64,000 nucleotides of DNA from Candidatus Poribacteria bacterium (GTDB taxonomy: Bacteria > Poribacteria > WGA-4E > PCPOR2b), in the NCBI GenBank assembly GCA_965208675.1, contig OZ242351.1:1024001-1088000 (forward strand). The letters are read 5' to 3'. Below are positions 17,611-49,853 of this stretch, piece by piece. The notes below the pieces were generated by a model that was not told the origin of the DNA, did not search any database, and saw only the letters and a program-made list of their open reading frames with translations. Positions within the stretch are counted from its first letter, which is position 1; the number at the start of each line of letters is the position of its first letter. Made by a program: the position numbers and the translations under genes.

Positions 17611-17628
17611 AATTACACCCGTGTAATT
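17611..17628. promoter_or_regulatory. palindromic protein-binding site AATTACAC-CC-GTGTAATT
   Basis: Perfect 8-bp inverted repeat; extra half-site AATTACACCC at 17739; same motif upstream of module 2. Confidence 0.7.
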
Positions 17629-17769
17629 CGCAAATCGCACGGAGGCGCTCTAATACTAAATCCATTAAGATTTCTGATGTGTAAATGTAATGCCTATCTC
17701 CCTAAAACCGCACCAACACTAGCTTCCGGCGATTCCAAAATTACACCCGCCGGCACAGGAGGGCAATAA

Positions 17770-18354
17770 ATGAACGGCAATCCAACCTGGTTGGAAGCCC
17801 TGCAAGACGATGATGTTAGAAAACATATCGCATACCACATCACGCTGGTCGGCACCACCAAAGCGGTCAATGCAATCTATCATAATCCGGCTTTCGCAGG
17901 TTGCCGAACCGGTGACGCAAAGCAGGATCGTAACGCCATACGCTCCGCAATTCAGGTTTGCAATCCGAGAAATAGAGACCGCTTCAACAGCCAAAAATAC
18001 GGTGCCGCCGTCGCAGATGCGATGAGCCACCTTTTGGAGTATTTAGTCTCAAAATCCATCCCGAACCTTGAACAAACCCAGGAACGGTTGCAAAAAGTCG
18101 ACGACCAAGCCGCCAAAACGGAGGACATCGATGACCTTAAACAACTCCTACTGCAACAGCAAATTCACATTCGACATCAAGGAGCCCTATTATCCCAGAT
18201 GCAATGGGCTTTTCAGTTCCTGCAATGGCGCGCGCAACATGCCGGTCCCGGTGCAGCCCAACCCCGGCTTGATTCGGAAGATGCGCTCGGGGAACTCCCC
18301 GAACCTCCTGAGTCGCTACGAGGAAATTCGACGCCGGCGCAAAGTCCTGAATGA
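17770..18354 (+). CDS. putative terminase small subunit-like protein (module 1)
   Basis: AGGAGGG SD; helical 194 aa; overlaps the TerL gene; clear paralog of 49177..49725. The TerS role is inferred from position only. Confidence 0.6.
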   Translation: MNGNPTWLEALQDDDVRKHIAYHITLVGTTKAVNAIYHNPAFAGCRTGDAKQDRNAIRSAIQVCNPRNRDRFNSQKYGAAVADAMSHLLEYLVSKSIPNLEQTQERLQKVDDQAAKTEDIDDLKQLLLQQQIHIRHQGALLSQMQWAFQFLQWRAQHAGPGAAQPRLDSEDALGELPEPPESLRGNSTPAQSPE

Positions 18355-20059
18355 TGACGACCGGGCGCTAATCGTCCACATGGCTTATCTCGATCCGAGG
18401 TTCTTTGTCGAATACTACCTCCACGACCCGCAGTCCATGTCCCCCCTGCAGCCCCACCATGTCCGCCTGCTCAACCTCATCCCCTACGACAAAACCGGCG
18501 TCAAAGTCAACGTCCAAGCCCCGCGCGGCTCCGCCAAGACAACCTGCTGCGCCGTCTGGTACCCGCTCTGGAGAATCTGTTTCAAATCATTTCAACTCGC
18601 TGAAGGCGTCCCGGAAGAAAAATTCATCCTCATCATCAGCCGCAATCAAACCATGGCAAAGGGCATTCTCGAAAACCTCAAACGTCTAACCGAAAATGAG
18701 AATATTGTCCGGGACTTTGGTAACCTATCTGGTCGTGTATGGAAAAAAGATGAATGCGAGACCGCTAACGGCGTCGCTGTCCGAGTGCTCGGACGAAAGC
18801 AGTCCCCGCGCGGCGCTCTCGTCGCCGGTAAACGCCCCTCGCTCGTCGTCGTCGACGACCTCGAAGACCCGAAACGCTGCTTAAACCCCGATCTGCGTGA
18901 GGAAGATGCGGACTGGTTCTTTTCGGACATCATGTTCGCCTCCGACATCGGCGGAAACCTTAACGTCATCTACGCCGACACCGTCAAGCATCCGGACAGC
19001 CTGTCCATGCGTCTAACACAAACCCCCGGCTGGAACAAAGTCCACTTCAAAGCAATCCTCGACCCCGAAGACCTCTACCACCCCACCCACGAACATCTCT
19101 GGAAAGGTTGGGACGCAATTTATAGTGACTTGTCGTTAGACGACGCAGAACGAGAAGCCAAAGCCGACGAATTCTACAACGCGCATGAGGAGCAGTTGAA
19201 CGCCGGCGTCACCGCTCTTTGGCCCGAAGAGCTGTCCTACCTGAAAGTCCGCAAGATGATCGCAGAGCGCGGATACCACTACACCCTGCGCGAACTGCAA
19301 AACATCGCTCGCGACCCAAGCATGTCATTGTTCGACATTGAGAACGCCATGACGTTTGAGGTCGTTGACGCAGGCTTAAAACGAGGCGACGGTCGCATCG
19401 TCGAATGGCATCAGATCGGCGGCTTCACCACCTACATCGACACCATGGGCGGCCGCGACGCGCAGCAGAATTCCTACGCCTGCGCTGTCGTCGTCGTATG
19501 GGAGCCGCTGCCCGGCGGACGCAAATCCCACCCCGATTCGTTAGCCGGTGTCAACGCTTACGTGCTGGACTGCTGGATGGGCAAAGCTGGACGCGCCGAA
19601 CAGTTCGAGAACGGCATTCTTAAACACCAGCGTTCGGACGCCGTGCTGTACAGAGCCGTACCAAAATCGTATTTTGTGGCTGAGGAGCGTCCGGACCCGG
19701 ACCGCTCCATCCGAACGTCTTACGATAATGTATTCAACGCGCTAAAAGAAGAACTCAAATTTGAAAAGCCGCTGGTCTATCACCCGCAGACACAAAATAA
19801 AGAAGAACGCATTGCAAACTTGGAGCCGCCCATCAAGAACGGTTGGCTCGCATTCAATAAGGTAGGTTTGCCGAGTGAGTTCTGGAAGCAGATGCGCGAA
19901 TTCCCGACTTCCGAGCACAACGACGCCCCCGACGCTGTTCAGGGCGCGCTTCGCCACAGAATCACCACCACCCCCAAGCAGCGCGAACACGACGAACGGC
20001 GTCAACGCGCACGCGACGAGTGGTATGGCGAATACGGACGTCCAACCGTCCATCTATAA
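18239..20059 (+). CDS. phage terminase large subunit-like protein (module 1)
   Basis: Walker A APRGSAKTT, Walker B LVVVDDLED, nuclease-domain motifs YIDTMGG, NKEERIANLEPPIKNG, FPTSEHNDAPDA; start uncertain (frame open from 18068). Confidence 0.88.
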   Translation: MPVPVQPNPGLIRKMRSGNSPNLLSRYEEIRRRRKVLNDDDRALIVHMAYLDPRFFVEYYLHDPQSMSPLQPHHVRLLNLIPYDKTGVKVNVQAPRGSAKTTCCAVWYPLWRICFKSFQLAEGVPEEKFILIISRNQTMAKGILENLKRLTENENIVRDFGNLSGRVWKKDECETANGVAVRVLGRKQSPRGALVAGKRPSLVVVDDLEDPKRCLNPDLREEDADWFFSDIMFASDIGGNLNVIYADTVKHPDSLSMRLTQTPGWNKVHFKAILDPEDLYHPTHEHLWKGWDAIYSDLSLDDAEREAKADEFYNAHEEQLNAGVTALWPEELSYLKVRKMIAERGYHYTLRELQNIARDPSMSLFDIENAMTFEVVDAGLKRGDGRIVEWHQIGGFTTYIDTMGGRDAQQNSYACAVVVVWEPLPGGRKSHPDSLAGVNAYVLDCWMGKAGRAEQFENGILKHQRSDAVLYRAVPKSYFVAEERPDPDRSIRTSYDNVFNALKEELKFEKPLVYHPQTQNKEERIANLEPPIKNGWLAFNKVGLPSEFWKQMREFPTSEHNDAPDAVQGALRHRITTTPKQREHDERRQRARDEWYGEYGRPTVHL

Positions 20060-20198
20060 CGCCGCGAAAACCGCACTGTTAGCAGGCATTCAGGATTGAC
20101 CGTCCAGGTTTAAATTTGATATACTATTCCTGACGGCGGCTAATGACACGCTGCGCCTGAACATTACGGCTTAGGAGAAGCGGTTACCGAATTTTAAT

Positions 20199-20228
20199 TT
20201 GATTTTTGTCGCGAGAGTTTAGTATAAT
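20199..20228 (+). promoter_or_regulatory. sigma70 promoter upstream of the structured RNA candidate
   Basis: TTGATT-18nt-TATAAT; a second promoter TTGACC-18-TATACT with extended TG lies at 20096-20125. Confidence 0.6.
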
Positions 20229-20234
20229 TAATAC

Positions 20235-20578
20235 TAGTTCTGGTCAGATTAAAAATCTCATTTCGAGCTTACAAGGAACCCGGACGATGGCGATTTGTGA
20301 ATGCTAAAAAACTAGGTTGTTCTGGATATCAATACTCGCACAAGGTAAGCACGCGCATTCGGCAATAAGCTGCCCTCTGATATGACGTGGAAACACGCCT
20401 ACGCGCAAATGTTGAGTTCGCCAGGACATCCCAGTTGCATAATCGAGTCCCCTTTTCGTGGCCGGAGAAAGGAAAGCATATCCGACAGCAATAATTTGAA
20501 GTAAGCTCAATCCATGACCAGATGGTTTTCTTACATCGGAAACGGACCACGATTCAAAAAGGGATCGTGGTTTTTTTG
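20235..20578 (+). ncRNA. putative structured ncRNA or cis-regulatory leader (family not recognised)
   Basis: Nested long-range pairings TCTGGTCA/TGACCAGA, GAGCTTAC/GTAAGCTC, GGTTGTTCTGG/CCAGGACATCC; GAAA-tetraloop hairpin; bounded by a promoter and a terminator. Confidence 0.6.
20546..20577 (+). terminator. intrinsic terminator
   Basis: ACCACGATTC-AAAAAG-GGATCGTGGT hairpin followed by a T7 run. Confidence 0.8.
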
Positions 20579-20692
20579 TTGCCATTTATTGAAATCCGCA
20601 CTCTAAAAATGGACCTCTCGCAGCCAAAAATTGATTTTTAAATTCAATTCTTACGAAAGCCATACACCTCCTGAAAAACGGGGGAGTTTATC

Positions 20693-22924
20693 ATGAAACT
20701 GATCGAACCAATGCCAAATCCAGTCAGACAAAAGATACAAGGGTTACTTGCGCCCGGCGAAGATGAGCTAATCTGCGTATCTGCTGACATGAACCGCGAT
20801 GGCCGTTACGGCACACGCTGGATTGTGGTCACAAACAAGCGCATCGTAATAATTTCGGAAGATGCCGTCGATGATGTTGTACAGATACTCATTGAAGATG
20901 TCGTATCCGTACGGACCGAACCCCTAGTGGGCGGAGGACGTTTGGAGATAGAGCGGAAGGCAAGCCCAACCGCCATTGTCCGGTACTCCAACTCTATGGC
21001 GGTGAAGTTCTCCGAAGTCGCGCGGGGCATTGAACAGCTCCGCAAGCAGGAACCGTTCCAAATTGATAGCCAACTTGAACGCACACGATGTGAAAAATGC
21101 GGCAGACTGTTGCCTGAAAAGGACGGCATCTGCCCGGCTTGTATTCAGCGGTTAGCGACGCTGCGGCGAATCGGAAGCTACCTAATGCCCTACAAATGGC
21201 GTGCTGCACTTCTCGCAATGGCGTCTCTCATTGGAACGCTGACAGAGATTTTACCGCCGCTGATTACCCGGCACATCGTGGACGATGCGTTGGTACCCGC
21301 GAAAGAATCAGCCATCGGCATGGAGGAACGGTTAACGCTGCTCGGTTGGTTTGTGCTGGGCTTAGTCGGTGTGCGGGTGTTGGGTTGGGGCGCGGAATGG
21401 GTACACGGCTGGACGGTGACCTGGTTGGGCGCCCGCGTCACAGCCGATATCCGAAGCCGGTTATACCGCCAACTCGAGCTGCTTTCACTGCAGTTTTATG
21501 ACAAGCGGCAGGTCGGCGCGGTGATGTCACGCGTGACAAGAGACGCCGGCAGGTTACAGGACTTCCTCGTGGATGGCATGCCCTATCTGATCATTAATGG
21601 ATTGATGATTGTTGGCATACTGGTATTCCTGTTTCTGATGAGTTGGCGGTTGACACTATACATTTTATTGCCGATCCCGATTCTGCTAGCGTGGGGAGTC
21701 CTCTTCTGGCGGCGGATGCGCCGGTACTTCCATAAGTGGGATCAGAGATGGTCAGATCTCATGTCTACGGTGAACGAAACGTTGTCTGGAATTCGCGTGG
21801 TAAAGGCATTCGCACAGGAGATGCGCGAGGTTGCCTCGTTTAATAGACGAAATAAGGTGCTGCGGCGGATAGCTGTAAGGACGGAAATCAACTGGGAAAT
21901 CTTTTTCGCCACATCGAGTCTTGTGACTAGCTTGGGGGTACTGATAATTTGGCTTTTCGGAGGGATAGAGATGTTCAAGGGCGAGTTTTCTATCGGTAAG
22001 CTATTGGCATTCTACGGCTTCATGTGGCTCGTCTACGGTCCCATCCAATGGTTCGGGCAGGTCAACAATTGGATGACACGTGCGTTCGCGGGAGCCGAGC
22101 GAATCTTCGAGGTCATCGACACGCCGCCTGAAGCTTACGACGATGCAGACGCCGTACCCATGCCTAACATTGAGGGCAGGATCGATTTTCAGAAAGTCAC
22201 GTTTGGTTACGATAAGAGCAAGCCGGTGCTGCATGAAATTAACCTCGAAGTCACACCGGGGGAGATGGTAGGACTTGTCGGCAAGTCAGGTGTGGGTAAG
22301 ACGACCACCGTGAACCTAATCTCCCGGTTTTACGACGTAGATCACGGCGCAATTGAGATTGACGGCGTGGATAACCGAACAATCCGGTTGGAAGATCTGC
22401 GCAGCCAGATTGGCATCGTCGCCCAAGAACCTTTTTTGTTCAGCGGTACAATTTCTGAGAACATCGGCTACGGCAAACCCGGCGCAGGCTTTGAAGAACT
22501 CATGGACGCCGCACAAGCCGCCAACGCTCACAATTTTATCGTCGCCAAGCCAGACGGCTATGATACCCAGGTGGGAGAACGGGGAAACAACCTGTCAGGC
22601 GGTGAAAAGCAGCGAATCGCTATTGCCCGGGCAATCCTCCACAATCCGAGGATTTTAATTTTGGATGAAGCGACTTCGTCGGTGGACGTGGAGACGGAAA
22701 AGCAGATTCAGGAAGCCGTTTCCCGGCTAACCAAGGGCCGCACCACCATCGCAATTGCCCACCGGTTGTCAACGCTGCGGAACGCGAACCGGTTAGTCGT
22801 GCTTGAGGAGGGGCGTATCGTGGAGGTTGGGACACATAGCGAATTGATGGAAAAACGAGGGATTTTCTACGACCTTGTTCAATTACAGCGGCAGACATCA
22901 GAAATTATCGCAGTTAAAGCGTAG
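20693..22924 (+). CDS. ABC exporter (TMD+NBD) with N-terminal extra domain and CxxC-CxxC zinc ribbon
   Basis: GKSGVGKT, LSGGEKQR, ILDEATS; CEKCG...CPAC before the TMD; GGGGAG SD. Confidence 0.93.
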   Translation: MKLIEPMPNPVRQKIQGLLAPGEDELICVSADMNRDGRYGTRWIVVTNKRIVIISEDAVDDVVQILIEDVVSVRTEPLVGGGRLEIERKASPTAIVRYSNSMAVKFSEVARGIEQLRKQEPFQIDSQLERTRCEKCGRLLPEKDGICPACIQRLATLRRIGSYLMPYKWRAALLAMASLIGTLTEILPPLITRHIVDDALVPAKESAIGMEERLTLLGWFVLGLVGVRVLGWGAEWVHGWTVTWLGARVTADIRSRLYRQLELLSLQFYDKRQVGAVMSRVTRDAGRLQDFLVDGMPYLIINGLMIVGILVFLFLMSWRLTLYILLPIPILLAWGVLFWRRMRRYFHKWDQRWSDLMSTVNETLSGIRVVKAFAQEMREVASFNRRNKVLRRIAVRTEINWEIFFATSSLVTSLGVLIIWLFGGIEMFKGEFSIGKLLAFYGFMWLVYGPIQWFGQVNNWMTRAFAGAERIFEVIDTPPEAYDDADAVPMPNIEGRIDFQKVTFGYDKSKPVLHEINLEVTPGEMVGLVGKSGVGKTTTVNLISRFYDVDHGAIEIDGVDNRTIRLEDLRSQIGIVAQEPFLFSGTISENIGYGKPGAGFEELMDAAQAANAHNFIVAKPDGYDTQVGERGNNLSGGEKQRIAIARAILHNPRILILDEATSSVDVETEKQIQEAVSRLTKGRTTIAIAHRLSTLRNANRLVVLEEGRIVEVGTHSELMEKRGIFYDLVQLQRQTSEIIAVKA

Positions 22925-23090
22925 CGTCCGCATATCTCCTCATGTACACCTTGACAATATTACCGCGAATTTTGGATTATGGCATATTCAAGCTTAAGGT
23001 CAGTAATTCTATCGCACTCCACGAAAATGCCGCGCATCGACGTGGCATTCAATCGTGCCAGCGCAAACTCGGACAAATGGAACACCAATA

Positions 23091-25319
23091 ATGCAACCGT
23101 TTATTGAATCGCTGCCTCCTGAGGTGGATGCGAAACTGCAAAGCGCGAAACCTTCGGATGAACAGGTACTTATCCAGGTCTCCGCGGATCTCACCACCGA
23201 CCAAGCATTTGGGGAAAAGTGGTTGGTAGCAACCAAATTCCGTCTACTGGTCGTGCCCGCTGATGGCGTCGTTGAGCAAATACCGCTCGACACAATTCAG
23301 GACATCAAAACTGAAGAACTGGTCGGCGGCGGCTGCCTAGTCGTTGAACGAAAATCGGGCGCACCCGTCTATCTGCACTATTCCAGCTCTTTAATTCCAA
23401 AATTCGCTGAGGTAGCGCAAGGAATCGGTCAACTCTCCAAAGGCAAACCGCTTGAGCTGCCGACGGAGATGGAACGGACGCGATGCGAAAAGTGCGGACG
23501 GCTGCTCCCGGAGAAAGACAGCAAATGTGTAGCCTGCATTAAAAAATGGAACACCTTAATGCGAATCCAAAGCTACGTTAACCCTTACCGCGTTCAACTC
23601 ACGTTGGTTGTAGTAATCACAGTGATCGGCGTGTTGATAAATTTGCTTCCGCCGCTAATTACTGAACGCATCATCGACGATGTGCTTATACCGTTGTCAA
23701 ACTTTAATCTTTTAGTTTGGCTTGTGGCGGGGTTATTGGGCGCCTATCTTTTTAGTTGGCTGTCCGAAATCGGGCATACGGCATTAAGCTGTTGGCTGGG
23801 TTTCCGCGCGGCTGAGGACATCCGGGCTAAACTCTATCGTTGTTTGCAGTTCCTGCCCATTAGATTTTACGACAAACATAAAGTGGGCGCGCTAATATCT
23901 CGCATGACCAACGACGCAGATCGGTTGGAGGATTTTATCGCCTTTGAGGTTCCCTACGTCATTTCCAACGCACTGTTATTAGTGGGTATTTTCTGCCTGC
24001 TGTTGTACAAAAATTGGGTGCTTACGCTCTATGTGTTGCTCCCCGTGCCGCCGATTGTTCTGGGGGGAATCTTCATGTGGAATCGTTTGACGCGTTTTTG
24101 GCGCCTTTGGTCTGCGAGGTGGGGGCGGTTCTCCTCGCACCTGAACGAGTCGATCACGGGGATTCGATTGGTGAAGGCTTTCGCGCAGGAAGACCGTGAA
24201 AGCACAGTGTTTGACCGGCATAACGACGCACTGCGGCAGGTAAACGTTTCGGGCAATCGGGCATGGTTCGTTTTCTACACCATCACAAACTTTCTGATGA
24301 GTTTCGGCGCCTTCTTTGTCTGGTATTTTGGCGGGAAACAGGTTCTGGGTGAGGAGTTTAAACTCGGAGAATTGACTGCATTCATTAGTTACCTTTGGAT
24401 GCTTTATCAACCGCTTCGGTGGTTTGGCGACTCCTACAACTTCATGCTTCGCGCTTTTGCCGGCGCCGAGCGAATTTTTGAAGTGATGGACGCGCCTTCT
24501 GATCCGTTTGATAATCCAAATGCCAGAAATATGCCAAAAATTGACGGGCGGATTACCTTCAAAGATGTCAAGTTTGGTTACGATCCAGGCAAGCCGGTCC
24601 TCAGAGATATTAATCTAACGGTAGAACCGGGAGAAATGATTGGCTTAGTCGGCAAATCCGGCGTGGGTAAAAGCACGATGGTCAATCTGATATGCCGATT
24701 CTACGATGTGACTCACGGCACTTTGCAGGTTGATGACGAGGATATCCGGAACATCCGTATCGAGGATTTGCGGTCTCAAATCGGCATAGTCCTACAGGAG
24801 CCATTTCTGTTTAACAGGACAATTGCGGAAAACATCCACTACGGCAATCCGGATGCGTCGTTTGACGAAGTCATGCGCGCAGCGATTGCTGCAGAAGCGC
24901 ATGATTTCATCGTTGCTAAACCCGACGGATATGACACGATGGTCGGCGAGCGCGGGAATAAACTCTCCGGCGGCGAAGGGCAGCGTATCGCTATCGCGAG
25001 AGCCATCCTGCATAATCCAAAAATTTTGATTCTCGACGAAGCGACATCATCGCTCGACACCGCAACAGAAAAGAAGATTCAGGCTGCTATTGCTAAGTTA
25101 ATCGAAGGACGGACGACGTTTGCCATTGCGCACCGGCTTTCCACGCTGCGCAACGCCGACCGGCTGATTGTTCTGGATGAGGGAAAAATCGAAGAGATTG
25201 GCACCCATGAGGAATTGATGGATCGGAAAGGGCGCTTCTACAATTTAGTCCAGACGCAAAAGGAAACATCGGCAGTCATGGCGGTCGGCGGCGGGAAAGA
25301 CGATCCGGGCAATGAATAG
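23091..25319 (+). CDS. ABC exporter paralog with N-terminal extra domain and zinc ribbon
   Basis: GKSGVGKS, LSGGEGQR, ILDEATS; CEKCG...CVAC; end-to-end paralog of the upstream gene. Confidence 0.93.
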   Translation: MQPFIESLPPEVDAKLQSAKPSDEQVLIQVSADLTTDQAFGEKWLVATKFRLLVVPADGVVEQIPLDTIQDIKTEELVGGGCLVVERKSGAPVYLHYSSSLIPKFAEVAQGIGQLSKGKPLELPTEMERTRCEKCGRLLPEKDSKCVACIKKWNTLMRIQSYVNPYRVQLTLVVVITVIGVLINLLPPLITERIIDDVLIPLSNFNLLVWLVAGLLGAYLFSWLSEIGHTALSCWLGFRAAEDIRAKLYRCLQFLPIRFYDKHKVGALISRMTNDADRLEDFIAFEVPYVISNALLLVGIFCLLLYKNWVLTLYVLLPVPPIVLGGIFMWNRLTRFWRLWSARWGRFSSHLNESITGIRLVKAFAQEDRESTVFDRHNDALRQVNVSGNRAWFVFYTITNFLMSFGAFFVWYFGGKQVLGEEFKLGELTAFISYLWMLYQPLRWFGDSYNFMLRAFAGAERIFEVMDAPSDPFDNPNARNMPKIDGRITFKDVKFGYDPGKPVLRDINLTVEPGEMIGLVGKSGVGKSTMVNLICRFYDVTHGTLQVDDEDIRNIRIEDLRSQIGIVLQEPFLFNRTIAENIHYGNPDASFDEVMRAAIAAEAHDFIVAKPDGYDTMVGERGNKLSGGEGQRIAIARAILHNPKILILDEATSSLDTATEKKIQAAIAKLIEGRTTFAIAHRLSTLRNADRLIVLDEGKIEEIGTHEELMDRKGRFYNLVQTQKETSAVMAVGGGKDDPGNE

Positions 25320-25412
25320 AACTGCCTTCCTTAACGCGGCATTCCTCTTCGTAGACCAAGAAAAACTCTCAACGCATTTTTTGCCGCATCTATATTAAAT
25401 CCGGAGAATACC

Positions 25413-25973
25413 ATGGAAAATACTAAATCTTTTAGTGATAAAGACAAGCCTAAAGCACAGCATTCAGTTACGCCGATTCAGACACCGCCGCCGGAATGCG
25501 TCAATCCAAAGGACATTCGATTGTTCCGAGAACCCCCGTGGAAACTGCGATTAACCATTGCCGGCGACCGTTCCTACCTCATGGTGCGAGTCGCTCGCGC
25601 AGCGCCGCTATCTCAACCGTCGAGGTATATCTGCTTTCTTGATGAAAAGAATGAGGTAATCTGGACTGTCGAAGACCCAAGCATCCTGGACGCTGACACT
25701 CGCCGAATCTTAAAGGAAGAACTCGACCAACGGTATATGACCGCTGTTATTGAGGTAGTCAACTCGCTCCGGAACGAATTCGGGGTGTCGTATTGGGACG
25801 TACAGACCAACCGAGGAAATCGGGAGTTTGTGGTACGGAACGTGTCCGAGAGCGCACAATGGATTTCTCCACGCCGTCTATTGCTAATTGACGTGGACGG
25901 CAACCGATTCGAAATCCCGGATATCGACGTGCTCGACAAGCGGAGTTTTGGTCTGATAGATATGGTGATTTAG
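25413..25973 (+). CDS. DUF1854 family protein
   Basis: RAAPLS.P.RYI, W.VQTNRG..EF, LLIDVDGNRFEIPD...LD..S motifs; usual partner of this ABC family. Confidence 0.85.
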   Translation: MENTKSFSDKDKPKAQHSVTPIQTPPPECVNPKDIRLFREPPWKLRLTIAGDRSYLMVRVARAAPLSQPSRYICFLDEKNEVIWTVEDPSILDADTRRILKEELDQRYMTAVIEVVNSLRNEFGVSYWDVQTNRGNREFVVRNVSESAQWISPRRLLLIDVDGNRFEIPDIDVLDKRSFGLIDMVI

Positions 25974-26366
25974 ATGAATATAAACTCGAATTACAGGTTC
26001 ATAGAAAATGCTGCTGCAACCCACCGATTCCGCAATTTATCTGGGCTACTAACGTGGAGTTACCAAAGGCCATTTTCACCGATACCGAGTTATAGTAATT
26101 CTCAAATTGAATTGCATAGAAACGTTCTGAATTTATTGCAATAAACGTCCAGATGTGATAGAATATCTATTTAATATTTTCTGGCGCCGATGTCATTTAT
26201 AATCCCGTAAATTGGCGTAAGCAACTGCGCTATCCGTAATGAGGTTCGATTGGCAAAGCGTCATGCACTCGTTTCCGTTTGTGTATTTCGGGCGTAGCGG
26301 CGATTGACTAAACCAGTCTTCGGACCGCTTAGCCCTGCCCACCTAGGTACAAAGGAGGCGATTTCA

Positions 26367-31308: not shown

Positions 31309-31321
31309 ATCAATCATTTAG

Positions 31322-32209: not shown

Positions 32210-32281
32210 GGCAAACTAATTTAACCACGCCATTGGGAAGCGGCGAGGGAATTGAGCTTTTCAGCATGAAACGGACGATTC

Positions 32282-37133: not shown

Positions 37134-37271
37134 CAAATAGTTTTTAGTTCACGCCCGCGGACTCTCTCATCTCTAAGGGTTCTGAATGAAATCAGAATCT
37201 CTCTTCGTTCAACAACGCTATCCTCTCTTGCAATTCGCGTCTACCATCGGGAATTTTGCCCAAAAATGCCT

Positions 37272-38462: not shown

Positions 38463-38547
38463 TCTTCTGTTCCGTTAATTCGAGCTGAACCGAATTGCAG
38501 GTTTATCAAGATTTTTGCGGCGCGTCAACGCTTGTACGGCAGTTCAT

Positions 38548-40116: not shown

Positions 40117-40202
40117 AATATTTATTGCCTTATTTACGCAACAAGAGAAACCGGCACGAAAATCAGCTATTTCACGCACACTTCTCTTCAGGATTTTTCG
40201 TT

Positions 40203-40970: not shown

Positions 40971-41278
40971 GTCCTATTCTCCCCGTATAACATCCCGCCA
41001 CATAATAGTGGAATATTCAGATATTTAAAATTCCAGAGGCATTATAGCATTCAATACGGCTCCGGTCAAGATCGACTTTCAATGCGGCAATCTTCCCTCT
41101 TTAGATTCATTACAATTCGAGTTTTCCAGATAATTATCGGGATTTTCTCACGGTTCGCAAACGGGGATATGCGTCCGTCTTTCTACTTGACTTCCTATGT
41201 ATTCGGCTGATAAAATCGTATGTAGATTCTAACTTCAATGACAGCGGCGGGAAAATTTTGAATGGGAGGAAGATTTGT

Positions 41279-42010
41279 ATGTCGAAACAGAATTGGCAAA
41301 CTTTAGCCAAAGCGTTAAACCGCGAACTCGGCTTGAAACACGCACCCATCGCGATTACGTTTTCTCACGATGCACCGAGTGATGCGGCGCAATACGAAGG
41401 AGAGATGCCAGAACCTTCAGCCGATGGTAGGACGGGGAAGGTCCCAGCCGGGTGCGTGTTTTGGACAGCGGCTACCGAAAAGACCTTTACTACTGAGCCC
41501 GAGGACCACTACAATTGCAGCGTTGGATGTGTCACGCATGGATTGAAAACGCTGGAAGATGTCATGGATAATGAAGATGTTCAGGGGCTCGTCGGATCCG
41601 GATGGGTTTCAGCGGAAGAAGCGATGCAGCTTCCATTTGTAAAACAGCGTTACAACCATATCACGTACGGTCCCCTAGGAGAAATTACTGTCGATCCCGA
41701 CGTGATACTCTTGCGGATAAACGCTTTTCAGGCGATGGTGATTCATGATGCGTTCAATGACATAGCAATTGTGAACAAACCACAATGCCACATCGTGCCA
41801 ATCGCTAAGGAGCAAAACAGACTCGCCATGAGTACGGGCTGCATCTTGAGCCGGGTACGAACGGGTATGCCGCCAGACGAGATGACGTGCACTATTCCGG
41901 CGCCGCAGTTGGAAGCAATCCTTGAAAAGTTAAAGGTTCGGCGGGAAGCGAATGCGGCGGCTTCTGCTTATGCAAACCAAGACGGGCGGCGTTTTGCTGA
42001 TCTGGCTTAA
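41279..42010 (+). CDS. DUF169 family protein
   Basis: PIAITF, DPDVIL, conserved Cys and GC..SR..G...DEM pattern; GGAGG SD; promoter TTGACT-18-TAAAAT at 41187-41216. Confidence 0.8.
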   Translation: MSKQNWQTLAKALNRELGLKHAPIAITFSHDAPSDAAQYEGEMPEPSADGRTGKVPAGCVFWTAATEKTFTTEPEDHYNCSVGCVTHGLKTLEDVMDNEDVQGLVGSGWVSAEEAMQLPFVKQRYNHITYGPLGEITVDPDVILLRINAFQAMVIHDAFNDIAIVNKPQCHIVPIAKEQNRLAMSTGCILSRVRTGMPPDEMTCTIPAPQLEAILEKLKVRREANAAASAYANQDGRRFADLA

Positions 42011-42310
42011 GCCTCGGCTAATCCGGACTTGACGGCAAGAACTTACACAATCTGCGCGCTCAGTCTATTTTGAGCCTCGCCATATTTGAATCTTTCGTCT
42101 GAAAAACCACGCAAATTAACGGTGTCCGCCAGAGAATGTATAGCGGGTGATAGTCCGTATCTGCTCCGGCGGTATCAAATTCCGTACCGGAGTCTGACTC
42201 AAGGGCAGCGGGGAGGAACGCACATAGCTTGTGCAATCATCCTGACAGGAGCGATTTTTGCTGTCGTACCCACGCTACCGCCGCTAGTGTGGTTTCCCCA
42301 TCTCCCCATT

Positions 42311-43153
42311 TCAGATTAACGCCGTGAATGCGGCATCCTTAGAACGCCGCGCGTATTGTGGAAACAGTTCGTCATGAATGTCGCTGCACTGCCGGAGATG
42401 GATATGGCGATTCGCGTCGGCAGTGTCAACTATCGTGGGATAGAACATCCCCGCGCCCGTCTCAACTTTATATCCGCCCGGGGAATGGACGCTCAAGTAC
42501 TTATGCAGCGTCTCTAAATCCGGTTTGGTTTTACAATGTTTTGTGCAATTCATGGTGAACATCCGACGCCGTGTACCACCGCCAAATGATGCGTGATAGG
42601 TATCGTGATTGAAAATCACGACATCACCGGGTGTATTTTCCAGTGCAACACTCGTTGGGAAGCCGCACGGCGGTATACCATACAGCGATTCCGAATGGTT
42701 CGGATCTATGTTTTCTGCTCTAACAAAGTGTAAAGGGTTTTGGCTGCCTGGGATGATGCGTAAGCAGCCCGACTCTTCAGTCAGCGGATCAAGATAAAAC
42801 GCCACCTTACAGGCGAAGAGCCGTCCCCAATTTCCGTCCGGATGCCAACCTGTGTTTCCGGTGTAATAGTTCCCGTCACCGCCTGCGAAGTTAAAATCTT
42901 CCCCGATTACGCCGCCGATTATTCCTTTGATACGTGCATCATCTAGCAGGGCACAGAGCCGAGGACGATGCTCCATCGGACCGCCGAACATTGTACGGCT
43001 TGATCCATCGTGGTCTTTACCGCCCCCGAATTGCTGAATCGTTATCTCAAATTCTTCCGTAATCCAATCCATCTCGTTCGGCGCAAACATACCGGGTATT
43101 GCGAGATAACCGAATGTGTTGAAGAAATTCACCTGATGTGCTGTTAGTTTCAT
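42311..43153 (-). CDS. phytanoyl-CoA dioxygenase (PhyH) family protein
   Basis: F.TFGYL, WHPD, GCLRIIPGS, PGDVVIFN...YHAS...RR motifs. Confidence 0.9.
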   Translation of the reverse strand: MKLTAHQVNFFNTFGYLAIPGMFAPNEMDWITEEFEITIQQFGGGKDHDGSSRTMFGGPMEHRPRLCALLDDARIKGIIGGVIGEDFNFAGGDGNYYTGNTGWHPDGNWGRLFACKVAFYLDPLTEESGCLRIIPGSQNPLHFVRAENIDPNHSESLYGIPPCGFPTSVALENTPGDVVIFNHDTYHASFGGGTRRRMFTMNCTKHCKTKPDLETLHKYLSVHSPGGYKVETGAGMFYPTIVDTADANRHIHLRQCSDIHDELFPQYARRSKDAAFTALI

Positions 43154-43262
43154 TGTGCGGCCTTCAGCGTAAAAGTACGGGAATTCGGTTATAGAGGTAA
43201 ATTGCTTGATTTCTCCTCACATCTCAGGCAAGGGCTAGGGTCGAAACACAGAACTCTCATGA

Positions 43263-44057
43263 CTAGCGCGCCTTAATCAACGCCCGCACGCGAACGGGGT
43301 CGACTTCGTTCGTTGTCACGCCGCCGCGTTTGATTGAGGTGCCGACGATAACGCCGTCCGCACACCGCAGGGTCTCAGCAAGGTTGTCGGCAGCGACGCC
43401 GCTTCCGGCGAACACCTTCCCTTGAGGAACTGCATCTTTGACGATTTTCAATTGCTTGAGGTCGGTGCGCTCGCCTGTGCCCGCTCCAGTGACGATTAGG
43501 GCATCAGCAAGCCCGCGATAATAAGTATCTCGGGCAACTGAAGCGAGGTCAATTCGTCCAAGCGGCACAGCGTGCTTGACAGCCACATCGGCGAAATTCT
43601 TGACATCGCTACCAAGGACGGACCGATAGCGCACGGTTTCATAAGCCTTGCCTTGCAGAACGCCCTGATCCGTGAGCATTGCGCCGGTGTGCACGTTGAT
43701 TCGGATAAAATCTGCGTTCGCCGCTGCGGCAATAGCTGTTGCGGACTTTGCGTCATTACGCAGTACATTTACGCCGATGGGTATCTTGGGAAAACGCTCT
43801 TGATGTTCGTTGACGATGATTGCCATAGCGGCAACGGTGTGCGCCTCTACGTAATCCGGGAAAAATGGCGCATCACCGTAGTTTTCTACGATAACCCCGT
43901 CGATGCCGTTGTCAATCAGCGCTTCAGCGTCCGCCAACGCCCGCGCACGTACCTCATTTAATGGAGATGCCTGTCTCGGACTGCCTAGCAGCGGGAGCAG
44001 ATGGACAACACCAACAATTGGTTTAGCACGGCTAAAGACGCCACTGATTCCTTGCAT
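43263..44057 (-). CDS. BtpA/SgcQ family protein
   Basis: GVVHLLPL, ENYGDAPF, GVNVLRND, DVAVKH, GSGV, IVGTSIK motifs. Confidence 0.92.
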   Translation of the reverse strand: MQGISGVFSRAKPIVGVVHLLPLLGSPRQASPLNEVRARALADAEALIDNGIDGVIVENYGDAPFFPDYVEAHTVAAMAIIVNEHQERFPKIPIGVNVLRNDAKSATAIAAAANADFIRINVHTGAMLTDQGVLQGKAYETVRYRSVLGSDVKNFADVAVKHAVPLGRIDLASVARDTYYRGLADALIVTGAGTGERTDLKQLKIVKDAVPQGKVFAGSGVAADNLAETLRCADGVIVGTSIKRGGVTTNEVDPVRVRALIKAR

Positions 44058-44191
44058 AGATGGTGATTGCGACTGACTTTACTATGATTGGCGGTTTCAA
44101 CCACAACGGGGAACTAATGCCCGCATCAATACAATTGATTTCCCAATTGACGTTGAGAAACAAACACGCATTGTGTGTCGAACATTAGACC

Positions 44192-45042
44192 TCACTCCGA
44201 TTCCGGAAAATCCCAGATTTGAAGAGCGGTTTTTCCCAATATCCATTCCATATCCTCCGGTGCGAAAAAGTCCATTTCGTCTCGCACGACAGACAATGTT
44301 TGCGGATACGCTGCGGCATTCAGACAGACCGGCCAATCCGTCCCCCACATAATCCGCCGCCCGCCAAACGTGTGGTACACCTTCTTTACCATATCGTGCG
44401 TATCAGCCCAGGGATAAGCCGTCTTCGATAGCCACCAGGTGTGACTAATTTTGACGTATACGTTTGGGAATGCCGCCAGGTTGAGCAGAAGTTTCAAATG
44501 ATCCGGCCGATCGATGGCGCAGTCCGCCATGTGATCAATGACCATGGTTAGACCGCTGTGGCGTTCCAGTAATTTTGCCAATTCCGGCAAACGATCTGGG
44601 GCAGCATTTTCGGCGCCGTGCTTTTTTGTGACAAGCAACATGGGAACACCCAGTTCTTCAGCGCGGCTGAAGATTCTACGCGTTAACTCGCCGCCGTACC
44701 AAGCCCCCGCGCGCCTGCGGCAGGACTCAACCGCACGCCGTGAAATCCTTGGTCTTCCGTCCAATAACTAAGATGATCCGGCGCATCCGGGTCTTCAGGA
44801 TTAATACGACAGACGCCCATGAATTTATCCGGATAAGATTTCATCGCATGTGCAGTATAGGTGTTGTCCCAGCGATAGTGAATTGACTGTACAAGAACGG
44901 TCTTCTCCACACCGTTCGCCGCCATCAACTCCAACAACATCTCTGGCGTCGCGTCATGGTTAGGGGGAACGACGGTCTCTGGCGCCCAAGGGAACTGGGG
45001 ATCGTTTTTCCAAACGTGAACGTGTGGGTCGATAATTCGCAT
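44192..45042 (-). pseudogene. amidohydrolase_2 family protein split by a 1-nt frameshift
   Basis: N-half (IIDPHVHVW, ORF 44683..45090) and C-half (IDHMA, YVKIS, MWGTDWP, ORF 44192..44764) are in different frames; junction at a GC run ~44704-44715. Confidence 0.8.
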
Positions 45043-45076
45043 ATGTGTTATTCTCTGAGAGGTCACACAGTGTCTA

Positions 45077-45461
45077 GGGCGTGTTGACATTCATGTGAAG
45101 CTGTCCATAATCGTAGGGGATCAACAGAGTGAATAGCGAGGGCGATAGTGTTTATCTGGTCGCCTCGCCCATTGATTAGCGCTGACTAGGTACGCCCAAA
45201 CCATACAGGATGAGTAGATTTTAGGTCGAATTTCAAACCTCGACAAAATTACCGCCGTGTTGCGCCATAGTCTTGGCTCAATTGAACCGGCAATTCGCGC
45301 TATACGCTAGGGTATTGTCGATTTTGGACGATTGCCTTACGGCAGCCCGAAAATCGTGTCTGATATGTGAACAAAGGGTTAGGAGACCTAACCCCTACGG
45401 AGCGTCATGAGTCTATGCACCGCTATTGATGATCCGGTTGTGATGAAATGTCAAAAAAAAC
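45077..45461. mobile_element. degenerate MITE with nested REP-like arms
   Basis: TA+GGGCGTGTTGACATT left end; decayed AATGTCAAAAAAAAC+TA right end; internal GTAGGGG... and ...ACCCCTAC arms; same end motif recurs at ~57967. Confidence 0.55.
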
Positions 45462-45559
45462 TAAGGCAATCGGCAAGTGAAACCAAACCTCAATTAGATG
45501 TGTCGATGCAAGGTAATTAGGTTCAAAAACAAAGCGAAAGATTTAAGACTAGCTACCGC

Positions 45560-46279
45560 CTAGTAAAGATAGTTTTCAGGCTGATAGCCGGATGGCTCGA
45601 GCACCACAATGACTGGCCGGTCGTCCGCAGATTTAGGAATCGGAAACGTTACTGTGTGATGCCGGACATAAAATATCGGGCTGCGTTGATGGCGCCTAAT
45701 GAATTCGCTCGCCGATACCATTTTGCCTTTGACCGGCGGCAGGTAGTAGTGCATGGGGAAAATCCACTTCGGTTCCAGAATATCAAGCATCGGCTCAAGT
45801 TCGTGCAATTTAAGCGTGAGCCGTTCGCCTACAATGGCAAGCAGTACATCACACCGGCCGATGAAGGGGGCAAGCTGATCCGCATCCAGCTCGTAACCGA
45901 GGTCGCCCATATGCAAGAACCAAAGGCCGCCGGCTTTGAAAGCGTACAGGGCATTATCGTCTGCGCCCTCCGGATGATCCTCCGCTTCGGCTGCTTTAAC
46001 CGTGATTAGCGGTTCGCCGTTGATTACGGCGTTGTCTCGGCCTTCGGCTACAGCCAGCGCATCAATTACGCGCGGGTTTCCCTCAACGAGTTCAACGTAG
46101 GAGTGCCCTCTATCCGTGAGCGAACTCGCGATCACTGTGCCCGCCTTTAGCCGGAAATCGTCATCGCCGGGCAGTCCGAGCGCGGAGGGCGTGTACGGAT
46201 CCATAGCGATAGTCGGTTTTCCGTTCTCCCAAAGCCGAAAGCAGGCAAGCCCTACCCATTCAAGCGAAACGGACATCAT
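45560..46279 (-). CDS. metallo-beta-lactamase-fold hydrolase
   Basis: W.G.ACF, MDPY, HMGDLG and PMHY motifs; AAGGAG SD. Confidence 0.8.
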   Translation of the reverse strand: MMSVSLEWVGLACFRLWENGKPTIAMDPYTPSALGLPGDDDFRLKAGTVIASSLTDRGHSYVELVEGNPRVIDALAVAEGRDNAVINGEPLITVKAAEAEDHPEGADDNALYAFKAGGLWFLHMGDLGYELDADQLAPFIGRCDVLLAIVGERLTLKLHELEPMLDILEPKWIFPMHYYLPPVKGKMVSASEFIRRHQRSPIFYVRHHTVTFPIPKSADDRPVIVVLEPSGYQPENYLY

Positions 46280-46290
46280 CCACGCTCCTT

Positions 46291-47292
46291 TTATTCCTCT
46301 CCGAGACCGCCCGCGCGTTCCATGCCCGCAATCTCCCACCACTTTGCGCCGGGCGACTTCTCGAGTACGATTGGCTTGAGAAAATCTACCGATTTCCGCA
46401 ACCCTTCATCAAGGTCGAAATATTCCGACTCCATTTCGACCGAAAGCACATGGTCATAACCGATGAAGCGGAGTGTTGTGGCAAACTCGCGCCATTCTAG
46501 TTCGGAGTGCCCCCATCCAACCAGAGTGTATGTCCAGGAACGATCCGCGGGTTGTTCAGGCGTGCTAGAGTCAGTGTTTCCCCGCAACCGCGCATTGTGG
46601 GGGTGGAAGGTTACGTCTTTTACGTGGACGTGCTGAACGAGCGGGCCGAGAAAGCGCGCGGCTTCGATAGGGTCAATGCCCTGATACCACAAATGCGAAA
46701 TATCGAAGTTGCAAGCAACAACATCACCAATTTCATCGTGCAACCGCTTCACGGCGACAGGGTTGTGAATCATATCGCCGCCATGCATCTCGAAACACAG
46801 CGTGACGCCGTGATCGGCGGCAATCTTCCCGTGTTCACGCCAGTAGGGGAGCAGCCGCTTCTCCCACTGCCATTCGAGGGTGTCGCGCAGGAAGGGCCAT
46901 TCGGCGAAAGTCACCCAATTTGGAGCTGTGTCGCCTTCGGCGCCTTCAGGCAACCCGGCAAGCAGCGTCATCCGCCGAATACCGGCTGCTTCCATAAACT
47001 TCCACGCCTCGCGAAGTTCCTGCGAATACTTATCGGCGACCGCCTTATTCGGCATGAGCGGCGCACCGTGCGCACCCATGGCGCTGATTTCGAGTCCATA
47101 CCGAGCATAGGTGTCATGCCAGCGGTCAATTTCACCTTTGTCTGCGAGGAGCTTCTGCGGATCACAGTATTTTCTCGCCCAAAGCCCCGCGATTCCAACC
47201 TCGATCGCCTGAAACCCCAGCTCTTGCGCATACCGCAGTCCATCCTCAAAATCTAAATGCATCAAGTTCTGTGAAATCACTCCGAGTTTCAT
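46291..47292 (-). CDS. sugar phosphate isomerase/epimerase (IolE/IolI-like TIM barrel)
   Basis: FEMHG, NFDISHL, HVHVKD and LSVEME motifs; AGGAG SD. Confidence 0.9.
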   Translation of the reverse strand: MKLGVISQNLMHLDFEDGLRYAQELGFQAIEVGIAGLWARKYCDPQKLLADKGEIDRWHDTYARYGLEISAMGAHGAPLMPNKAVADKYSQELREAWKFMEAAGIRRMTLLAGLPEGAEGDTAPNWVTFAEWPFLRDTLEWQWEKRLLPYWREHGKIAADHGVTLCFEMHGGDMIHNPVAVKRLHDEIGDVVACNFDISHLWYQGIDPIEAARFLGPLVQHVHVKDVTFHPHNARLRGNTDSSTPEQPADRSWTYTLVGWGHSELEWREFATTLRFIGYDHVLSVEMESEYFDLDEGLRKSVDFLKPIVLEKSPGAKWWEIAGMERAGGLGEE

Positions 47293-47462
47293 GAAAAACT
47301 CCTTTTTCTCCTAAACCTACCTGTACGTTAATACTCACTTGATATTTGCCCAAATAGATAATGCAGTTGCAAATTCTTAATTAGATTATTTCAGTCACCT
47401 TGCGATTTTAGTATATCACGGTATATGATTTTTTTTCAATACATTTGCGAGTCAATATTGGG

Positions 47463-49328
47463 TTATATGTGAACGATGTTTCTTCTTCGTTCTCGGCGGC
47501 GTTCGTCAAGTTCGCGTTGATTTGCGGTTGTCGTGACTCTGGCGCGGAGTGCACCTTGAACGGCATCGGGCGCGTCGTTGTGCTCCGAGGTCGGGAATTG
47601 TCGAAACTGTGTCCAGAACTCCGCGGGCAAACCTTGTTCATTGAACGCGAGCCACCCGTTTTTGATCGCGGGTTCAAGGGTTGCGATTCGTTCCTCTTTG
47701 TTTTGGTTTTGGCGGTGGTAATAGATGTTCTTGTCGAAGTTTAGCTTACTTTTCATGGCGTTGAACGCTGAAGTATTCGCTTGTTGGATAGTGTAGTCCG
47801 GGTCGGGTCGCTGTTCGCAAACGAATTTAGATTCAGGATTTGTGTGTCCAAGCATTGCATCCGCACGTTGGTGGAGCAGGATGGCATTCTCCATCTGTTC
47901 TGTGAGCGGAACGCGACCCATCCAGCAGAGCAGGATGTATGCGTTGACTCCAGCAAGGGAGTCCACATTGTATTCGCGACCACCGGGGAGGGGTTCCCAA
48001 GCGACGACGACGGCGCAGGCGAAAGCGTTTTCGCGAGTATCTTTCCCACCCATGGAGTCGAGATAGGTGGTAAAGCCCCCGACGTTATTCCAAAAGACGA
48101 GCCGCCCGTCCGAACGCCGGAGTCCGTTGCCTTCAACCCGGAATGTGACGGCGTTGTCCATATCGAAGAGCGACATGCTGGGGTCGCGGGCAATGTTCTG
48201 GAGTTCGCGCAAACAGAAGTGGTATCCTCGCTCAACAATCATCTTCCGGACTTTGAGATAGGATAGCTTCTCGGACCAGAGCGCAGTGACGCCAAGGTTC
48301 ATATCCTCCGCGTTGGCATTATAGAATTTGTCCGCCTTTGCTTCGCGTTCAGCATCATCTAATGTCAAGTCGCGATAAATGGCTTCCCATTCTTTCCATA
48401 GGTATTCGTGGGTCGGGTGGTACAGGTCTTTGGGGGAACGGATAGCTTTGTAGTGTACGTTTTTCCAGCCGGCTGTCTTCGTTAGCCGCATGGAGATGCT
48501 ATCCGGGTGTTTTACGGTATCGGCGAAGATAAGGTTGATGTTCCCTCCGATGTCGGAAGTGAACATGACGTCCGTAAAGAACCAATCCCAATCTTCTTCA
48601 CGCAGATCGGGGTTTACGCAGCGTTTCGGGTCTTCGAGGTCGTCGACGATGACGAGCGACGGTCGTTTGTCCTCGACGAGTGCACCGCGCGGGGATTGGT
48701 TGCGTCCGAGGGGCAAGAGGGTGACGCCGTTGGCAGTCTCGCATTCGTTCGCTTTCCAGAAGGGACCGCGGAGGACTCCGAAGTCCTCGGCAATTTTAGG
48801 CTTTTCCATCAGTCCTTTGATATTGCGCAGATTTCTTTTTGCCATGAATTCGTTGCGGCTGATGATTAGGATAAATTTCTCGTCCGGGACGCCTTCAGCG
48901 AGTTGGAAGGCTTTGAAACAGATTCTCCACAGCGGATACCAGATAGCGCAGCAGGTTGTCTTTGCGGAACCGCGCGGGGCTTGGACGTTGACTTTGGCGT
49001 CGGTTTTGTCATACGGGATGGGATTGAGCAGCCGCACATGATGGGGCTGAAGCGACGACATTGTGTTCGGGTTGTGGAGGTAGTATTCCACAAAGAATTC
49101 GGGAAAGATATAAGCCATGTGCACCAATAGCGCCCGGTCGTCATCATTCCGGATTACTTCTTGCCGTCGGATTTTCTCATAATGACTTCGGAGTTTCCGG
49201 CAGTTTCCGTCCCGTATCTCGCGGATTAGATTGGGATTGGGTTGAATCGGCGCCCGTTTCGTCGGCAGGGCGCCGGTTGAATTGAACAGACCCCGCGAGC
49301 GACGATAAGGCTGATCTATGCTTATCAT
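47463..49328 (-). CDS. phage terminase large subunit-like protein (module 2)
   Basis: APRGSAKTT, LVIVDDLED, YLDSMGG, NKEERIATLEPAIKNG, FPTSEHNDAPDA; colinear paralog of 18239..20059. Confidence 0.88.
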   Translation of the reverse strand: MISIDQPYRRSRGLFNSTGALPTKRAPIQPNPNLIREIRDGNCRKLRSHYEKIRRQEVIRNDDDRALLVHMAYIFPEFFVEYYLHNPNTMSSLQPHHVRLLNPIPYDKTDAKVNVQAPRGSAKTTCCAIWYPLWRICFKAFQLAEGVPDEKFILIISRNEFMAKRNLRNIKGLMEKPKIAEDFGVLRGPFWKANECETANGVTLLPLGRNQSPRGALVEDKRPSLVIVDDLEDPKRCVNPDLREEDWDWFFTDVMFTSDIGGNINLIFADTVKHPDSISMRLTKTAGWKNVHYKAIRSPKDLYHPTHEYLWKEWEAIYRDLTLDDAEREAKADKFYNANAEDMNLGVTALWSEKLSYLKVRKMIVERGYHFCLRELQNIARDPSMSLFDMDNAVTFRVEGNGLRRSDGRLVFWNNVGGFTTYLDSMGGKDTRENAFACAVVVAWEPLPGGREYNVDSLAGVNAYILLCWMGRVPLTEQMENAILLHQRADAMLGHTNPESKFVCEQRPDPDYTIQQANTSAFNAMKSKLNFDKNIYYHRQNQNKEERIATLEPAIKNGWLAFNEQGLPAEFWTQFRQFPTSEHNDAPDAVQGALRARVTTTANQRELDERRRERRRNIVHI

Positions 49329-49725
49329 GAATTTGCTGCCTCAATTTGAGCCGTTTAAGGTCATCAATATTTTCGGTTTCCGCCGCCAAGTCATCAACTT
49401 GTTGCATCCGTTTGAGGGATTGATCGAGGTTTGGCAGGTGTTCCGCAACCAAAAACTCGTATTGGTCTCTCAAGGCGTCTACGAGGGCATCGCCATATTT
49501 TTGGGTGTTGAAGCGATCTTTAATTTTTGGATTGCAGGTCTGAATGGCGGAACGTATAGTTTTTCGATCCTGCACCGCGTTGTCGGTTCTGCATTCTGCG
49601 TAGTTAGGGCTTTGGAAAATGGCATCAACGGTCTTCGTGGTACCGAATCGCGCGATGCTGTAGGCGATACTTTTTCGGATGTCTTCGTCTTTCAAGGCTT
49701 CCAACCAAGTGGTTTTATCTAGCAT
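49177..49725 (-). CDS. putative terminase small subunit-like protein (module 2)
   Basis: TWLEAL.D.D.RK.IAY.I...GTTK, IRSAIQ.CNP...DRFN.QKYG shared with 17770..18354; AGAGG SD. Confidence 0.6.
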   Translation of the reverse strand: MLDKTTWLEALKDEDIRKSIAYSIARFGTTKTVDAIFQSPNYAECRTDNAVQDRKTIRSAIQTCNPKIKDRFNTQKYGDALVDALRDQYEFLVAEHLPNLDQSLKRMQQVDDLAAETENIDDLKRLKLRQQIHDKHRSALSSLAGSVQFNRRPADETGADSTQSQSNPRDTGRKLPETPKSL

Positions 49726-49760
49726 TTTATTATCCTCTGGGTATTTTTTTGAATTATTCG

Positions 49761-49853
49761 GTTACACCGGGTTACACTGAAATTACGCCGGTGTAATTCT
49801 CGGATTGCTGGGATTTAATCCCGGAGCGGATTTGGGGATTTATGAATTACACC
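49761..49853. promoter_or_regulatory. array of TTACAC sites including palindrome AATTACGC-CG-GTGTAATT
   Basis: GTTACAC at 49761 and 49771, palindrome at 49781-49798, AATTACACC at 49845. Confidence 0.7.

Follow-up and report, generated by a model that had tools for sequence, protein, structure and literature searches.

Clade-specific repeat arrays in the stand-alone terminase modules of Candidatus Poribacteria: probable pac-type sites of a putative small terminase

Which protein reads the short palindromic repeats that precede two terminase modules on the chromosome of a Candidatus Poribacteria bacterium? The modules lie in a stretch of 64,000 nucleotides (contig OZ242351.1, positions 1,024,001 to 1,088,000; the window), and each pairs a small open reading frame (ORF), putatively encoding a small terminase (TerS), with a gene for a large terminase (TerL). 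An earlier note had proposed that a palindrome and accompanying half-sites in the two leaders are bound by the small ORF product and serve as a pac-like initiation site or an operator, or else form the box of a host repressor. The motif is genuine, yet narrower and better organised than first noted, and the comparison of related modules indicates that the array is probably the cognate TerS site, of pac type and possibly also an operator. A scan of GTDB genomes by exact peptide patterns, whose counts are a lower bound, found at least 39 loci (designated by L numbers), all of them in Ca. Poribacteria (12 genomes with 2–5 copies each). Their small ORFs fall into seven clades that are 13–32 % identical to one another (48 % for D versus D2), and both window modules belong to clade A.

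In module 1 the perfect palindrome AATTACAC-CC-GTGTAATT lies at 17611–17628, as first noted, and module 2 has a copy with one mismatch at 49781–49798; the half-sites announced at 17739, 49761, 49771 and 49845 are all present. The full palindrome is indeed confined to both leaders: the pattern AATTACACNNGTGTAATT gives two matches at up to three mismatches in the 64 kb, compared with a mean of 0.29 in a shuffle control in which 3 of 100 shuffles reach two, and only the second site counts as a test since the pattern was derived from the first. Within the window, 200-nt stretches with at least four TGTAA/TTACA also occur in both leaders only. The leaders had been described as not obviously alignable, a view that does not hold, as an alignment extends over about 110 nt preceding the ATG. 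Both palindromes are there but their positions are not equivalent in this alignment: the module-2 palindrome pairs with the lone inverted half-site of module 1 at 17739, and the copy at 17611 is therefore an extra, non-orthologous one. Likewise, the 18-mer fits only three of the seven related leaders, whereas the narrower TTACA-N4-YGTAA fits all seven. The conserved unit is TGTAA(T); the array has a direct pair of it, followed by a spacer and then an inverted copy.

Module 1 has a direct TGTAA pair, overlooked in the first description, at 17680 and 17686 (17680–17690, forward strand), which is the left arm of the canonical array. The conserved spacer core AA[AT]CCGC[TA]C, common to clade A and B arrays, follows at 17704–17714 on the same strand, and then the inverted half-site at 17739–17748 (reverse strand), orthologous to one arm of the module-2 palindrome. 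The extra perfect palindrome at 17611–17628 carries the clade-A word at position -157, compared with -61 to -71 in the other six clade-A leaders. Module 2 has on the reverse strand a left-arm TGTAA half-site (49845–49853), the spacer core AAATCCGCTC (49824–49833) and, between palindrome and ribosome-binding site (RBS), two TGTAA half-sites at 10-bp spacing (49761–49777); its canonical clade-A palindrome is the copy at 49781–49798. The core at 17704–17714 may be a candidate cut region or a second promoter. A further AATTACACC, at 13316, is within the right end of an IS3-family insertion sequence (IS), outside both modules.

The word follows the clade of the small ORF. TTACA-N4-YGTAA is found in 7/7 clade-A leaders and is absent from the remaining 33 leaders and from the rest of the 40 loci with their flanks; the motif does recur in homologous modules elsewhere, but as a mark of clade A (7 of 40 modules) and not as a feature of the whole family. 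The usual clade-A layout consists of a left half-site or pair, the core AA[AT]CCGCTC, an inverted half-site 48–55 nt on, and finally two further direct copies at about 10 bp, which module 1 does not have. The base 5' of TGTAA is largely uniform inside a locus and varies among loci (G in both window modules and most L005 sites, mostly A in L001–L003, T in L038). Clade B keeps the core but its word is ATGGATTA, with 3–4 copies in 3/3 leaders, arranged as a pair at 11 bp with an inverted copy 70–71 nt on. Altogether six clades have their own word (A 7/7, B 3/3, D 7/7, F 6/6, E 9/9, D2 3/3); the patterns were written from each clade and gave no matches outside their own clade.

A host repressor of the LexA type, controlling induction through the palindrome, would account for the dyad symmetry near the RBS, which resembles a classical operator. 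However, paralogous modules of one genome bear different words, which disfavours such a protein, and the box is missing from 33 of 40 leaders, including those of clade-B paralogues in clade-A genomes, as well as from the flanks of all 40 loci, among them a dnaA region and a DNA-polymerase cassette (other lineage). The chance that this part of the original proposal is right seems to us very remote.

The same conclusion is favoured by an exchange at one orthologous site. L005 (clade A) and L034 (clade B) occupy the same chromosomal site, have downstream genes, promoter, leader and terminator in common, and encode TerLs that are sisters in both domain trees; the two loci diverge from just after the U-tract of the terminator to the start of the TerL core. 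The array was replaced as one block together with the small ORF and the N-terminus of TerL, and this joint swap favours a cognate TerS site over a host repressor. L038 (clade A) and L004/L029 (clade B) probably represent a second cassette swap, with weaker synteny, and more than one small-ORF clade is likewise present in each of five site groups of a second lineage.

The leader scan revealed no upstream array for clades D, D2, E and F. Their words (AGCGCAC, GCGAAC, TCGCA and CAAGCAC) lie inside the gene, at homologous small-ORF codons, as a direct pair at 10 bp with an inverted copy 85 bp further on. This geometry was defined on D and F, leaving E and D2 unused in the definition. The fixed-geometry site tops about 21,600 positions in 18 of 24 loci, and among the E and D2 loci 6/12 rank first and 10/12 are in the top ten. 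Words agree better within a locus than across clades for D, E and F, and synonymous divergence dips at the array codons of the same three clades. In a control on TerL sequences, a chance match to the geometry was common to relatives (CGACG in 6/7 D loci), and within-clade sharing alone was therefore not taken as evidence. Coding constraint alone was considered as the source of the in-gene words and rejected, since inverted and direct copies change together. Neither linkage nor a single host regulator readily explains such co-changing copies, which include the inverted one in coding sequence; the simplest cause would be a binding protein encoded in cis. The proposal of a cognate pac-like site or operator of the small ORF hence gains from three features, namely that the word co-varies with the clade, swaps with it, and elsewhere lies in the gene.

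Could the array simply serve the small ORF product as an autoregulatory operator or activator site and play no part in cutting or packaging? Arrays of clades A and B sit between terminator and RBS, a TAGCAT hexamer resembling a -10 element follows the conserved core in L001–L003 with the palindrome downstream of it, and the SPP1 TerS is described as repressing its own operon (PMC4737164). However, in D, D2, E and F the array is about 215–320 nt inside the gene and, in most loci, about 400–750 nt from the promoter, a poor place for an operator. The pac site of phage P22 lies within its terS gene, a parallel to the in-gene arrays. A purely autoregulatory role is thus improbable in our judgement.

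Several observations weigh against the cognate-site reading. For clades A and B alone, physical linkage could explain why word and clade co-segregate, and L038, a clade-A locus, holds one stray ATGGATTA copy. Clade C has no array in any of its five loci, in upstream as well as in-gene scans. The spacing varies among clades (48–55 in A, 70–71 in B, 84–85 in D/E/F), the words of clades D, D2, E and F are related (3–5.3 of 7 cross-clade matches), D2 is not separable from D by word, and L012 and L013 fit poorly and do not stand out. No significant sequence or fold match links the small ORF to a known TerS, and neither portal nor capsid turned up for the window's lineage, including among 51 relatives of the portal described below. 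Finally, the isolated TerS domain of SF6 is described as binding pac without sequence specificity (PMC4737164), so that repeats need not be TerS boxes.

Small ORF 1 (194 aa, 17770–18354, forward strand) is overlapped in the +1 frame by the TerL 1 open frame (18068–20059, first ATG at 18239); on the reverse strand, small ORF 2 (182 aa) occupies 49177–49725 and TerL 2 (621 aa) 47463–49328. The two TerLs are 71 % identical and the two small ORFs 51 %. The large ORFs match phrog_38 (E 2e-58 and 4e-53), with NF033889 and TIGR01630 matches below cut-off, and P-loop, Walker B and nuclease aspartate motifs are kept in 45 sequences; judged from these motifs and matches, they are large terminases with an N-terminal P-loop ATPase and a C-terminal nuclease. 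Their nearest phage relatives are 24–29 % identical and largely Mu-like, and a PDB sequence search with the TerL profile gave no relative. The small ORF is directly upstream of TerL in 38/39 loci and both window modules, and the overlap, about 100–300 nt, is always in the +1 frame (all 36 loci with an intact TerL frame and both window modules). The overlaps at 18068–18354 and 49177–49328 put the TerL start position, or a recoding event, at issue.

For the small ORF, a profile search gave 53 relatives at E up to 0.001. The module proteins have no match among Pfam, PHROG and NCBIfam families, and 1 of 34 distant homologues matches the TerS family phrog_1063 (E 0.007). The predicted fold, with a mean pLDDT (predicted local distance difference test) of 82.6, starts with a helical N-domain and continues with a long helical hairpin and a loose tail, in keeping with the usual TerS plan. 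Its top viral match (BFVD) is an annotated small terminase, with a probability of 0.97 but a non-significant E of 0.24. The best fold-search hit of the N-domain has Z 5.2 (root-mean-square deviation, rmsd, 3.9; 63 residues aligned) and G20C TerS scores Z 3.8 (rmsd 3.7, 52 aligned) among many Myb- or helix-turn-helix (HTH)-like rows; PDB fold searches gave only generic coiled-coil or weak helical-bundle rows, and the fold search of the N-domain against viral models came back empty. On position, predicted architecture and the one non-significant fold match, the small ORF product is a putative TerS. Prediction of its complex with TerL scored 0.00, gave no verdict and was counted neither way.

Most modules share, in their upstream part, an order of promoter, leader and hairpin with U-tract. 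The sigma70-type promoter is TTGACA-18-TATCAT in module 1 (17434–17463, forward strand, 11/12 consensus matches) and TTGACA-18-TATAAT in module 2 (50082–50111, reverse strand, 12/12), and the pattern is found upstream in 32/40 modules. RNA folding of module 2 gives a long hairpin with U-tract at 49919–49974 (reverse strand), a predicted intrinsic terminator between promoter and array; a simple terminator scan did not pick it up, and it recurs in L005 and L034. The hairpin of module 1 itself looks weak in RNA folding. Between promoter and terminator lies a leader of roughly 130–200 nt in all clades (window 49919–50111), whose types assort independently of the small-ORF clade. Rfam gave no match in the window at gathering score, nor for the module-2 leader at E up to 1. 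In the second lineage the promoter spacer AATCCGCCCCAACATG (e.g., L014 at -407) resembles the clade A/B array core at 17704–17714; a common regulator site behind both is possible.

This layout recalls antiterminator-controlled late promoters, and since the terminator stands between the main promoter and terS, some activation or antitermination seems needed. The array, merely linked to terS, might accordingly be bound by an allele-specific late activator supplied in trans by a helper phage or from elsewhere; RinA is described to bind allele-specific promoter regions upstream of terS (PMC3152322). Arrays lying in the gene with one fixed geometry in four clades do not suit such an activator, and a comparison of flanking genes revealed no regulator family that recurs beside the modules. 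This explanation strikes us as decidedly improbable, and the putative TerS encoded in cis is preferred as the binding protein.

What, then, would the site be for? The module is a stand-alone unit of about 2.9 kb comprising promoter, leader, terminator, array, terS and terL, and similarity between modules ends at about the TerL stop codon. TerL paralogues are 65–93 % identical within a lineage; the window TerL is 83 % identical to those of L001, L002 and L039, with which it also has flanking genes in common. Intact loci number 36/39, L030 and L037 being broken and L039 a 3' remnant. Median ratios of nonsynonymous to synonymous divergence (dN/dS) are 0.22 (45 pairs) and 0.125 (378 pairs) for TerL and 0.19–0.33 for the small ORF, rough values because dS is near 0.85; the modules are under purifying selection, dN/dS being well below 1. 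In L039 the TerL 3' end alone (L039:10001-10216) occupies the site orthologous to module 1, where island and small ORF are absent. L030 is an IS-disrupted module directly upstream of dnaA-, dnaN-, recF- and gyrB-like genes.

Within 5 kb per side, downstream genes are common across genomes in 23/40 loci and upstream genes in 9/40. The upstream DNA contains restriction-modification, IS and nuclease genes, and a tyrosine recombinase lies within 10 kb in 6/39 loci. A family scan of the flanks covered 150/170 upstream and 144/144 downstream representatives, the 20 left out being upstream proteins of 110–125 aa. Credible virion matches in it were limited to a portal of the P22 type (phrog_156, E 5e-14; PF16510) and one protein matching phrog_511. 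The portal is found 7–10 kb upstream of one orthologous site in five second-lineage genomes (5/39 loci) and is conserved (dN 0.04 and dS 0.47, one pair). Ten of its 51 relatives are 77–93 % identical, and many others are on 33–49-kb contigs; it has no PDB sequence relative and no tblastn match in the phage collection. Together with two unassigned conserved ORFs, the portal precedes terS-terL at L019:113-5192 and L009:408-3864 and also in L011, L012 and L018; the phrog_511 virion gene accompanies it in L019, and an uncharacterised 527-aa gene follows terL. This neighbourhood is a candidate podovirus-derived head locus resembling a gene transfer agent (GTA).

The flank scan gave no major capsid gene match within reach of the 39 loci, and among the window proteins scanned there is no portal or capsid gene nearby. 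Several matches were set aside as host-type: phrog_800 'TerS' on a gene of L030 that lies between the dnaN-like gene and the gyrase gene, phrog_53 on L034:7-807, phrog_8510 on two proteins, and phrog_31 on L012. Integrase, replication genes and flanking att repeats are features of phage-inducible chromosomal islands (PICIs) and other phage satellites. Among the proteins scanned around the window modules there is no tyrosine integrase or replication gene, the flanks giving only IS3 transposases; 28 loci examined have no common flanking, att-like or terminal repeat, and the window has no tRNA gene. Since the searches for head genes, integrase, replication genes and att repeats gave these results, the array is not assigned to a phage or PICI.

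The modules could still have a TerS site and package nothing useful. They might act against phages, as decoy terminases or as nucleases triggered by infection, or be what repeated prophage integration has left behind. The restriction-modification, IS and nuclease genes upstream would agree with this, as would the three broken or remnant loci and the related portals on phage-sized contigs. However, PADLOC gave no match for either module gene, dN/dS is well below 1 and all but three of the 39 loci are intact, and a conserved portal stands beside one site. We regard this alternative as unlikely, though worth keeping in mind.

The surroundings of the window modules add some further observations. 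The two modules converge across 27.4 kb (20059–47463) of mostly housekeeping genes, whereas L019 and L022 are in tandem, about 33 kb apart. The islands upstream of the modules contain a methyltransferase-Mrr fusion (13375–15207) and a large methyltransferase-like gene (51989–55321), and the one upstream of module 1 also has two IS3-family elements in tandem (10720–13365), both with an orfA and an orfB. A 126-aa ORF at 15279–15659 is also present upstream of L001, L002 and L003 (four clade-A modules with module 1) and has no Pfam, PHROG, NCBIfam or PADLOC match. Dispersed intergenic repeat families (up to 112–149 nt), frequent in related loci too, occur at 8247–9672, 45096–45152, 51925–52064, 55338–55421 and 56700–57316.

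How might the units work? A TerS oligomer would bind the direct pair and the inverted half-sites and then recruit TerL, which would cut nearby and could launch headful packaging directly from the chromosomal site; once bound, TerS may in addition dampen the expression of its own operon, as in SPP1. Array and terS would form an exchangeable specificity cassette on a common TerL, in stand-alone units kept at several fixed chromosomal sites. On a wider and more tentative proposal, which we hold with somewhat less than even confidence, sponge-dwelling Poribacteria have domesticated a podovirus packaging motor as a multi-origin chromosome-transfer system. The terS-terL units would be programmed packaging starts, each addressed by its exchangeable TerS-plus-site cassette, and the packaged DNA would go to heads from a single locus or a helper phage.

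Site recognition by small terminases is still debated, and the family offers natural TerS/site pairs: with six words on two groups of similar TerL, and swaps at orthologous loci, cognate and non-cognate binding are directly comparable. If the modules package host DNA, they would provide a host-encoded, site-directed route of gene transfer in an uncultured sponge-symbiont phylum, a route that could also explain why cassettes are swapped and why the defence islands next to the modules vary. A search of open-access PMC and bioRxiv literature found neither multi-copy stand-alone terminase modules nor Poribacteria terminases; the site would be a variant of the known pac type, and the literature searched had nothing on the surrounding system.

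A close counterpart of such a site is the pac region of SPP1, described as carrying direct repeats and overlapping promoters, RBS and the terS 5' end; TerS binds there, TerL makes the cut, and the complex lowers its own transcription (PMC6316719, PMC4737164); a terS-terL-pac unit is reported to suffice for cleavage (PMC6316719). Like SPP1 pacL/C/R and the P22 pac, the Poribacteria arrays consist of repeated boxes at the promoter/RBS or in terS, directly upstream of terL, and by this analogy the array would work like a pac site. Unlike the pac of headful phages, the unit stands alone on the chromosome in 2–5 copies per genome, mostly without adjacent head genes, and several alternative words are found on one TerL family. 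The phrog_38 large terminases of KS10, Pseudomonas transposable phages and the Paenibacillus Tripp group are likewise full-length ATPase-nuclease proteins (24–29 % identity), whereas the small ORF has no similarity to the KS10 TerS and the associated portal is P22-like (PF16510).

Like the GTAs RcGTA and the podovirus-like FpGTA, the family has conserved, apparently domesticated phage packaging genes over several loci, with a P22-like portal next to one module. GTA terminases are described as non-specific (PMC12946183, PMC6854486), and the FpGTA TerS as having no obvious DNA-binding domain (PMC12946183). In contrast, the Poribacteria small protein keeps a predicted helical domain at its N-terminus, comes with specific arrays and is present in multiple copies; the clade-specific arrays argue indirectly against non-specific packaging of the GTA type.

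In lateral transduction, a bona fide pac site used in place is described to drive packaging of host DNA, and Staphylococcus aureus pathogenicity islands (SaPIs), which have a TerS and pac of their own, to redirect packaging to these sites (PMC6687093); defence islands are reported to adjoin lateral-transduction sites and to move in this way (PMC12829572). Unlike SaPIs and PICIs, the Poribacteria modules carry TerL too and sit at fixed orthologous sites. As in prophage, SaPI and PICI lateral transduction, the terminase would start in place and run into host DNA, and the system, if it does so, would amount to host-encoded lateral transduction, midway between GTA and prophage.

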